64,000 nt of DNA. Source: Candidatus Aenigmatarchaeota archaeon (lineage in GTDB: Archaea; Aenigmatarchaeota; Aenigmatarchaeia; QMZP01; QMZT01). The stretch lies in contig JAZDFI010000008.1 of assembly GCA_043808015.1 (NCBI GenBank), positions 13,271-77,270 on the forward strand, written 5' to 3'. Under the pieces are notes generated by a model. That model searched no databases, had not been told where the DNA came from, and saw only the letters and a list, made by a program, of their open reading frames with translations. Both the position numbers and the translations under genes were made by a program. Below, in pieces: positions 24,337 through 25,554 of the stretch (within the stretch, counting starts at the first letter, position 1; every line of letters starts with the position of its first letter).

Positions 24337-25554
24337 ATGGCGAACGAGGACATTCGGAAGCGACGGCTGAAAGATATAGTCGAAGAACTCGACAACTTCC
24401 GCGGGCGCCACACGGAGCTAATATCTGTTTACATACCAGCAGGATTCAACCTCTACAAGGTGGTCGAGCAGATAAACAGCGAGAAATCTACGGCCCAGAA
24501 CATAAAGTCGAAGACGGTTCGCAAGAACGTCATGTCCGCGCTGGAGCGCATAACACAACATCTCAAGCTCTACAAGCAGACGCCTCCGAATGGCCTGGTC
24601 ATTTTCGCAGGCAACATTTCCGAGCGTGAGGGCGTTGACGACATAGAAATATACGCTCTGGAGCCGCCGGAGCCGCTTAACCAGCGGCTTTACAGGTGCG
24701 ACCAAAAGTTTGTCCTTGACCCGCTGAAAGACCTCATACGCGAGCGCGAGATATTCGGCATAGTTCTTATAGACAAGTCAGAGGCCGACATCGGCCTGCT
24801 GCACGGCAAGAAGGTCAGGCCGCTCAAGCACCTGGACTCGATGGTGCCGGGCAAGACTGAAGCGGGTGGCTGGTCGCAGGCACGATACGCTCGAGTGCGC
24901 GAAGGCCTGCTGAACGACTTCATGAAAAAAGTCGGCGAAATCGCTTCCCAAAATTTCAGCGACCAGAAGGATTTGCTGGGCGTGATTGTAGGAGGACCCG
25001 GCCCGATAAAGGAAATGTTCGCGAGAGGCGATTTCCTGAGATACGACTTCAAGAATAAAATAATCACGGTAGTCGACACGTCTTATATGGGCGAATACGG
25101 CCTCGAGGAAGCGGTCAATCGTGCCGAGGAGGCGCTCAAGGAAGCGAGCGTCATGAAAGAGAAACGAATTCTCATCCGCTTTTTCAACGAGCTCGGCAAG
25201 GATTCCGGCCTGGCGGTATATGGTCTCAAAGAGACCGTGGAAGCGCTCAAATCAGGAGTCGTCGAGTTGTTAATGGTTTCAGAGCATTTGGACTGGGTTA
25301 AAGCAAACATAAAATGCCTCAATTGCGGCGAGGAAAGGGAAGTCGTAATGCTGCGGGACAAGCTGGAGAGCCTGAAATGCGAAAAGTGCAGCGAGCTCTA
25401 CGAGATTCTGGCAGAGAAAGACCTTACGGACGAGATAATCAAGATGGCCGAGGAAATGAACACGAAAGTCGAGATGGTTTCCGCCGACACGAAGGAAGGC
25501 GCGCAACTGAAAGACATGGGCGGAATCGGAGGGATTCTCAGGTATAAGGCTTAG
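24337..25554 (+). CDS. prf1: Peptide chain release factor aRF1 (eRF1 homolog) with an atypical GGQ region (GGWSQ)
   Basis: NIKS codon-recognition motif (TAQNIKSKTVR); domain-2 VPGKTEAGGWSQARYARVR aligns to canonical VPGKHKAGGQSARRFERL; C-terminal Zn ribbon CLNCG...CEKC. Confidence 0.85.
   Translation: MANEDIRKRRLKDIVEELDNFRGRHTELISVYIPAGFNLYKVVEQINSEKSTAQNIKSKTVRKNVMSALERITQHLKLYKQTPPNGLVIFAGNISEREGVDDIEIYALEPPEPLNQRLYRCDQKFVLDPLKDLIREREIFGIVLIDKSEADIGLLHGKKVRPLKHLDSMVPGKTEAGGWSQARYARVREGLLNDFMKKVGEIASQNFSDQKDLLGVIVGGPGPIKEMFARGDFLRYDFKNKIITVVDTSYMGEYGLEEAVNRAEEALKEASVMKEKRILIRFFNELGKDSGLAVYGLKETVEALKSGVVELLMVSEHLDWVKANIKCLNCGEEREVVMLRDKLESLKCEKCSELYEILAEKDLTDEIIKMAEEMNTKVEMVSADTKEGAQLKDMGGIGGILRYKA

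Follow-up and report, generated by a model that had tools for sequence, protein, structure and literature searches.

Can an archaeal release factor terminate translation without its GGQ glutamine? GGQ is the one motif common to the unrelated release factors of bacteria and of archaea and eukaryotes; it is the standard universal catalytic element, and its glutamine undergoes a conserved methylation by a dedicated enzyme. The question is raised by the aRF1 gene of a Candidatus Aenigmatarchaeota archaeon, in which the tripeptide reads GGW. The gene lies in a stretch of 64,000 nucleotides of contig JAZDFI010000008.1 (positions 13,271 to 77,270), which was analysed as a whole, is called the window in the following and provides the coordinates of the features described. 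On the best reading of the sequences, the protein would be a functional release factor devoid of the GGQ glutamine.

Tryptophan at the glutamine position of an archaeal aRF1

The aRF1 gene occupies positions 24328-25554 on the + strand and codes for 408 amino acids from the first GTG, or for 405 from the start annotated by NCBI at 24337 (+), the latter product being MFH1237015.1, entitled 'MAG: peptide chain release factor aRF-1 [Candidatus Aenigmatarchaeota archaeon]' (MAG, metagenome-assembled genome). The protein comprises the three eRF1 domains, with a Cys4 insertion in domain 3, and the Pfam models eRF1_1, eRF1_2 and eRF1_3 all match above their cutoffs. It scores 476.6 bits with TIGR03676, the NCBIfam aRF1_eRF1 equivalog model (cutoff 234.7), and 79.9 bits with the pelota model TIGR00111 (cutoff 177.65), which matches domains 2-3 only; the VLRF1 model PF18859 gives a weak match (E 5.7e-12). 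Both stop-codon recognition motifs are present, NIKS as N58-S61 (residues 58-61, 24499-24510, +) and YxCxxxF as YRCDQKF (residues 122-128, 24691-24711, +). The assignment to aRF1 and the presence of NIKS, both proposed in the initial annotation, are thus confirmed.

In the catalytic loop, positions 24859-24882 read gaa gcg ggt ggc tgg tcg cag gca and code for E A G G W S Q A, as had been noted initially. The tripeptide G180 G181 W182 (24865-24873, +), with TGG as the codon of W182 (24871-24873), replaces GGQ and is followed by Ser183-Gln184 (24874-24879, +), so that the loop reads GGWSQ with a glutamine at +2. The initial annotation had also considered that an insertion of two amino acids might have displaced the glutamine. 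However, the phmmer alignments of the motif region with PDB entries 4af1 (aRF1) and 1dt9 (human eRF1) are gapless and pair vpgkteaGGWsqaryarv with vpgkqrkGGQsaqrfarl, the tryptophan falling exactly at the glutamine position. The change is therefore a substitution of tryptophan for the GGQ glutamine and not an insertion, and, with tryptophan instead of glutamine, the N5-glutamine methylation that is universal elsewhere is impossible at the third position of the motif (GGX) in this protein.

The best sequence match of the window protein is 4af1 (270 bits). An AlphaFold2 model with a mean predicted local distance difference test score (pLDDT) of 83 has aRF1 4af1 and eRF1 5lzt (template modelling score 0.79) as its top PDB matches. 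Modelling of the loop, as suggested initially, thus recovered the aRF1/eRF1 fold, but the GGW loop itself is of low confidence (pLDDT 54-65) and has no bearing on catalysis. The 50 long non-overlapping open reading frames (ORFs) of the window end in TGA (20), TAG (16) or TAA (14); as all three stop codons are in use, an omnipotent release factor is required.

Spread, conservation and intein content of the motif

Homologs were searched in a collection of 5.8 billion sequences from NCBI, ENA, JGI and Logan assemblies, and the best 120 were taken (58-100% identity). GGWSQ was found in 81 of them, GGWSA in 37, GGW with a 134-amino-acid mini-intein in one (P0087) and GGQ in one (P0078). GGW is thus present in 119 of the 120 best homologs, from many independent assemblies, and in all of the species-representative GTDB genomes L001-L005. 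The ortholog comparison that had been called for thus shows GGW throughout the clade, with the exception of the single GGQ homolog.

With HMMER, 150 aRF1 representatives were retrieved from 1.84 billion cluster representatives. A neighbour-joining tree was built from 220 sequences, the columns of the motif being masked. In this tree, one clade of 134 sequences contains 127 with tryptophan, 4 with methionine, 1 with phenylalanine and 2 with glutamine, its sister groups being GGQ. All NCBI-labelled members of this large GGW clade are named Aenigmatarchaeota. Its two glutamine-bearing sequences, L006 (4171-5367) and P0078, are nested deep within it on a long branch, read GGQSAARFARV with a CAA codon and are 61% identical to the window protein. 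Judging from this position they look like a reversion from tryptophan to glutamine, by two base changes, or a conversion.

Other states occur outside the main clade. GGW is found in P0166, P0195, P0222 and P0239, as well as in P0215 and P0439, which stand among approximately 118 GGQ sequences of Altiarchaeota-like aRF1; GGF is found in P0147 and P0162, GGS in P0210 (together with an intein) and GGE in P0218 and P0244. GGM and GGF forms are also present in related DPANN lineages. GGW thus recurs independently outside the main clade, and the independent recurrence of GGW, GGF and GGM argues for function and against decay. P0439 comes from a JGI contig of 12,525 bp (Ga0598246_0000502, locus L155), where the Altiarchaeota-like aRF1 homolog lies at 3734-4810 and contains GGWSQARFEHII. 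This contig carries tightly packed small ORFs on the same strand, including a terminase-like/HerA ATPase, a second ATPase and a methyltransferase, and is probably a virus or a plasmid; P0439 may thus be a release factor variant encoded by a mobile element. No GGW aRF1 was found in IMG/VR.

Conservation within the GGW clade was examined in 129 sequences (mean pairwise identity 63%, minimum 37%). The 46 invariant columns include the N and K of NIKS, the Y, C and F of YxCxxxF, both glycines, the tryptophan (129/129) and the serine that follows it, R183 and R186. The four residues of NIKS are kept in 129, 127, 129 and 128 of the 129 members, respectively, and Y, C and F of YxCxxxF in 129 each. The helix after the loop has changed along with the motif, RF being replaced by RY in 106/129 members of the clade versus 19/82 GGQ sequences, and E by A in 119/129 versus 10/82. 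The ratio of non-synonymous to synonymous substitution rates (dN/dS) of the window gene is 0.068 against L001, 0.085 against L002 and 0.050 against L003. The GGW substitution is thus ancient and under strongly purifying selection.

The motif is also the site of an intein, inserted exactly between GGX and the following serine in 57 of the 150 aRF1 representatives (130-577 amino acids; junction GG[Q/W/M/F/S], then C...HN, then S). It is absent from the window gene and present in the aRF1 loci L014 (7946-10678), L151 (6454-9189), L152 (10001-12739) and L154 (10001-12739). The intein-bearing proteins fall within P0121-P0269, some with two or three inteins and up to 1452 amino acids long, and the longer inteins examined, in the 911-912-amino-acid proteins P0121, P0130 and P0134, contain LAGLIDADG and helix-turn-helix domains. 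Non-glutamine GGX states were found in 15/57 intein-bearing versus 10/87 intein-less sequences (Fisher p = 0.026, kinship being ignored in this test). In the distant P0215, the same GGWSQARY block occurs inside an otherwise Altiarchaeota-like sequence. As the intein lies between W and SQARY, its homing could have co-converted the codons on either side, which is, as a speculation, a possible route for the spread and recurrence of GGW. The word 'intein' occurred in none of the ten best literature matches for intein with aRF1, release factor and archaea.

The GGM-bearing L154 has several features of its own. A Trm112-like gene (5671-5877) lies 4 kb upstream of its aRF1 gene, and a gene call of 1430 amino acids (16887-21179) joins the C-terminal domain of RNA polymerase Rpb2 to the N-terminal domain of Rpb1, possibly as a true fusion, possibly as an artefact of gene calling. 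The polymerase gene that follows this call has another intein.

A possible mechanism of release and the ribosomal pocket

In published work on release factors, the main-chain amide of the GGQ glutamine is described as the catalytic element, and release is lost when proline takes its place (PMC6742477, PMC4691834). The backbone of the two glycines takes up a conformation accessible to glycine only, and a Q240E variant keeps reasonable activity (PMC4691834, PMC6742477, PMC5799190). The glutamine's side chain serves for packing and for water selection (PMC4691834, PMC5799190). In bacterial complexes it is contacted by nucleotide 2452; methyl-glutamine packs on U2506, A2451 and nucleotide 2452 (printed as 'A2452'), and methylation improves this packing (PMC5799190).

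In the window protein the rest of the aRF1 termination apparatus is intact, that is NIKS, YxCxxxF, the two glycines and the serine and arginine residues at the base of the loop. Peptidyl-tRNA hydrolysis would proceed through the backbone conformation of the two glycines and the main-chain NH of residue 182, which published work regards as chemically essential and both of which are kept by tryptophan. As tryptophan, methionine and phenylalanine are all large and hydrophobic and keep the backbone amide, we infer a packing role for them: their side chain would form a hydrophobic wedge replacing N5-methyl-glutamine next to A2451, nucleotide 2452 and U2506. The downstream glutamine of GGWSQ and altered nucleotides of the pocket (U2452/C2504 and G2453/U2499) might, more speculatively, contribute as well. 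The glutamine side chain of GGX may thus not be essential for termination. The N/DPP[YFW] motif of N5-glutamine methyltransferases was found in none of the ORFs of the window, to which this search was confined.

Another explanation would give the downstream glutamine the leading part, the functional residue having moved by two positions (GG-W-S-Q) as in the VLRF1 family, with the tryptophan as a spacer or an anchor. A GGxSQ motif was indeed reported for aVLRF-1 and acVLRF-1 by Burroughs and Aravind (PMC6514570). Glutamine at +2 is found in the window protein and in 90/129 members of the GGW clade, versus 17-23% of the GGQ sequences; Ser-Gln also follows GGX in all W, F and M lineages observed outside the main clade (P0166, P0195, P0215/P0439, P0222, P0239, P0147 and P0162), and the M clade reads GGMSQ. 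On these patterns, Gln184 is a candidate for a displaced or compensating amide and may help. However, 39/129 members of the clade (~30%) read GGWSA, with N or S as the next residue, and keep their other conservation, so that the downstream glutamine is not essential there and compensation by it is not general. Furthermore, the loop is not lengthened in the way reported for VLRF1 (PMC6514570), and Ser-Gln may only mark the transfer of a block consisting of W and SQARY, the intein being located between W and S. The VLRF1 or Vms1-like proteins (aVLRF-1, acVLRF-1; PF18859) belong to the same eRF1 superfamily and their GGxSQ resembles the GGWSQ of the window protein, but they are without the N domain that reads stop codons, reportedly have a longer catalytic loop and act on 60S- or 50S-bound peptidyl-tRNA in rescue. 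In the window protein, by contrast, NIKS and YxCxxxF are kept and the loop has the canonical length, and ~30% of its clade is without the Ser-Gln glutamine. A displaced catalytic glutamine therefore seems improbable.

The 23S rRNA gene of the same genome belongs to an rRNA operon within the window (48693-51828, +) and was numbered according to E. coli rrlH and set against the archaeal consensus of Rfam; a BLAST search of the peptidyl-transferase centre (PTC) region of the window against E. coli gave no match. Relative to the consensus, the window gene deviates at PTC positions that are normally conserved, with A2448G (51162), C2452U (51166), A2453G (51167), A2497U (51404), C2499U (51406), U2500C (51407), A2503C (51410) and U2504C (51411), all on the + strand, and it is unchanged at A2451, U2506, U2585, A2602 and 2059-2063. 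Two paired swaps, of C2452/U2504 to U/C and of A2453/C2499 to G/U, look like coordinated changes when the sequences are compared. A relative on a 1.1-Mb contig (L002/L029) has a GGW aRF1 that is 82% identical to that of the window, and its 23S rRNA is 89.7% identical overall and identical in the PTC sequence. A functional link between the 23S pocket and the GGX loop is hypothesised.

The C2503/C2504 signature (CGCCGUCGG) was found in metagenome contigs (loci L031-L150), in at least 98 23S genes that form four sequence classes. The window-like class (U2452, G2453, U2497, U2499 and C2500) is 74-98% identical to the window 23S rRNA over the best aligned segment, among the matches listed. In a class different from that of the window, the Nanoarchaeota/Pacearchaeota-like contig L131 has C2503/C2504 together with the canonical C2452, and it carries a normal GGQ aRF1 gene at 7666-8739, with approximately 6.5 kb between it and the 23S match. 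A2503C/U2504C was therefore rejected as a change specific for GGW. Covariation of A2448G with U2500C was rejected likewise, as C2500 occurs with A2448 kept in most of the window-like 23S sequences.

None of the 24 aRF1 loci from GTDB contains rRNA. The prolyl-tRNA synthetase (ProRS) gene adjoins the rRNA operon in close relatives only and lies elsewhere in three distant GGW contigs (664, 420/47 and 297 kb), and a walk from ProRS P0311 led into non-syntenic DNA. Megablast and protein synteny comparisons of the rRNA loci with the aRF1 loci gave rRNA-to-rRNA matches only and no further pairs of aRF1 and 23S genes.

The window 23S gene also contains a 195-nt insertion in helix 89 (~51190-51385), which differs in L029 in both length and sequence, is absent in L156 and may be an intron or an expansion segment. 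LAGLIDADG-like ORFs lie inside the 23S genes of other lineages (L042, 13778-14311; L129, 6414-7235). Elsewhere in the window, a 109-nt tRNA gene (54658-54766), presumably containing an intron, matches the 71-position tRNA model of Rfam from end to end.

Ortholog or paralog, and what the substitution would mean

By descent and architecture, the window protein is an aRF1 ortholog that fails a single class-I feature, the GGQ glutamine, and is not a Pelota, Balon or VLRF1 protein. It resembles aRF1/eRF1 (TIGR03676; PDB 4af1, 3agk and 1dt9) in the three domains, NIKS, YxCxxxF, the two glycines, the serine, the R..R pair and the length of the loop, has its best sequence and fold matches there, and is likewise encoded among translation genes; it differs in having tryptophan where these have the catalytic, N5-methylated glutamine, and in the residues of the following helix that co-vary with it. 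Pelota/Dom34 and Balon are of the same superfamily and fold and also have no glutamine at the tip of their central domain, but they have neither NIKS nor YxCxxxF and do not read stop codons, the N domain of Pelota being Sm-like and not of the NIKS type, and their structural matches to the window protein are much weaker than those of aRF1/eRF1.

The window gene could nevertheless be a degenerate or neofunctionalised paralog, with release being carried out by a separate canonical GGQ aRF1 and the GGW protein being a binder of stop codons with a different role, as a readthrough regulator, as a rescue or hibernation factor similar to Balon or Pelota, or as a dominant-negative form. Loss of GGQ is a hallmark of the non-releasing Pelota and Balon, which are distant structural matches of the window protein; a GGW homolog is encoded on the mobile-element-like contig described above; and some MAGs labelled Aenigmarchaeota carry a GGQ aRF1 at 49% identity. 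On the other side, the window GGW protein is itself the best TIGR03676 match and is encoded at a conserved locus beside ribosomal protein genes, the order PQQ-repeat genes, aRF1, PAP2 phosphatase, L3, S11, S4 and S13 being shared by the window, L001-L003, L014 and L152. The GGQ-bearing relative L006 has a KaiC-like upstream gene and one downstream gene in common with the GGW loci L004 and L005. The stop-codon recognition motifs show little or no variation, and dN/dS lies between 0.05 and 0.09. Moreover, among the MAGs of one NCBI study, the accession numbers of GGW and GGQ proteins labelled Aenigmarchaeota are approximately 10^5 apart and thus belong to different MAGs. No second eRF1-family ORF was detected with a clade-specific hidden Markov model in the 64-kb window and approximately 0.5 Mb of related loci, which constitute the evidence base for the copy number. 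Contigs of GGW relatives point to genomes of approximately 1 Mb, and small genomes seldom retain duplicated core translation genes. On the loci surveyed, the inactive paralog suggested initially is therefore unlikely, and the window protein is most likely, as the aRF1 ortholog, the ordinary, omnipotent class-I release factor of the organism, and probably the sole one.

At the same locus, directly upstream of aRF1, overlapping tandem paralogs code for PQQ-like beta-propellers of approximately 450 amino acids (21565-22953 and 22902-24254). The window has two copies, whereas relatives have five or six (L001, 3266-9891; L152, 2027-9938).

The alternative that the sequence is wrong, through sequencing or assembly, or that TGG is read in a non-standard way has nothing in its favour but the prior expectation of an invariant GGQ and can practically be discarded, since GGW recurs in 119/120 homologs drawn from assemblies of NCBI, ENA, JGI and Logan, the change from CAR to TGG requires two base changes, TGG is unchanged while the adjacent glycine (GGT/GGC/GGG/GGA) and serine (TCG/TCC/AGC) codons vary synonymously between assemblies, and TGG behaves as a tryptophan codon in the window, where tryptophan has an ordinary frequency of 1.0% in the ORFs and belongs to the 'EVWRFRTG'-type units repeated in the adjacent PQQ beta-propeller genes. 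Among the three interpretations offered by the initial annotation, an unusual catalytic solution is thus best supported, the error having been refuted and the inactive paralog having become unlikely.

The glutamine-less release factor can be extended to a wider scenario, in which a deep clade labelled Aenigmatarchaeota would perform all of its termination with a factor that lacks the glutamine and is not methylatable, the tryptophan, methionine or phenylalanine would dock into a co-evolved pocket formed by U2452/C2504, G2453/U2499 and C2503, and the allele might have spread, and reappeared in lineages that are not related, by intein co-conversion. This combination is put forward as a tentative possibility. 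Several points weigh against the glutamine-less factor itself or against parts of the scenario. A sole release factor without the glutamine would contradict the description of GGQ as universally conserved and the reported lethality of mutations in each of its residues in model organisms (PMC9589212). The A2503C/U2504C part of the rRNA change also occurs with a GGQ aRF1 in L131, and the link between the rRNA and GGW is drawn from two genomes only, those of the window and of L002/L029. The nesting of the GGQ of L006 and P0078 inside the GGW clade is a further such point. For P0439, with its virus- or plasmid-like contig, a release-dead, dominant-negative role would fit as well, and the downstream glutamine cannot be a general compensation, given GGWSA[N/S] in 39/129 sequences. 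As the sole-copy status was assessed in the window and related loci, a canonical second aRF1 could lie elsewhere in the genome.

Natural GGW has laboratory counterparts in engineered mutants of the GGQ glutamine in RF1, RF2 and eRF1 (Shaw and Green 2007; Santos et al. 2013; Seit-Nebi et al. 2001; see PMC4691834, PMC6742477 and PMC5799190 for summaries). In vivo, these mutants are reported to be deleterious or lethal (PMC9589212), whereas the natural GGW is fixed in a lineage. Classical aeRF-1 is described as carrying GGQ (PMC6514570). No description of a GGQ replacement in an archaeal aRF1 was found in the literature, the coverage of which was incomplete, so that it may have been described before.

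Annotation pipelines label the GGW proteins as 'aRF-1' without flagging the change, and screens for release factors based on the motif would miss the GGW forms. If the GGW protein is the sole factor, these organisms would provide an in vivo test of the view that the backbone together with the rRNA and tRNA is catalytic and the side chain merely packs. If the proposal is true, natural GGW, GGM and GGF sequences would be available for biochemistry and cryo-electron microscopy, the methyltransferase Mtq2 would be predicted to be dispensable in these organisms, and the substitution would be connected with an altered PTC in the same genomes.

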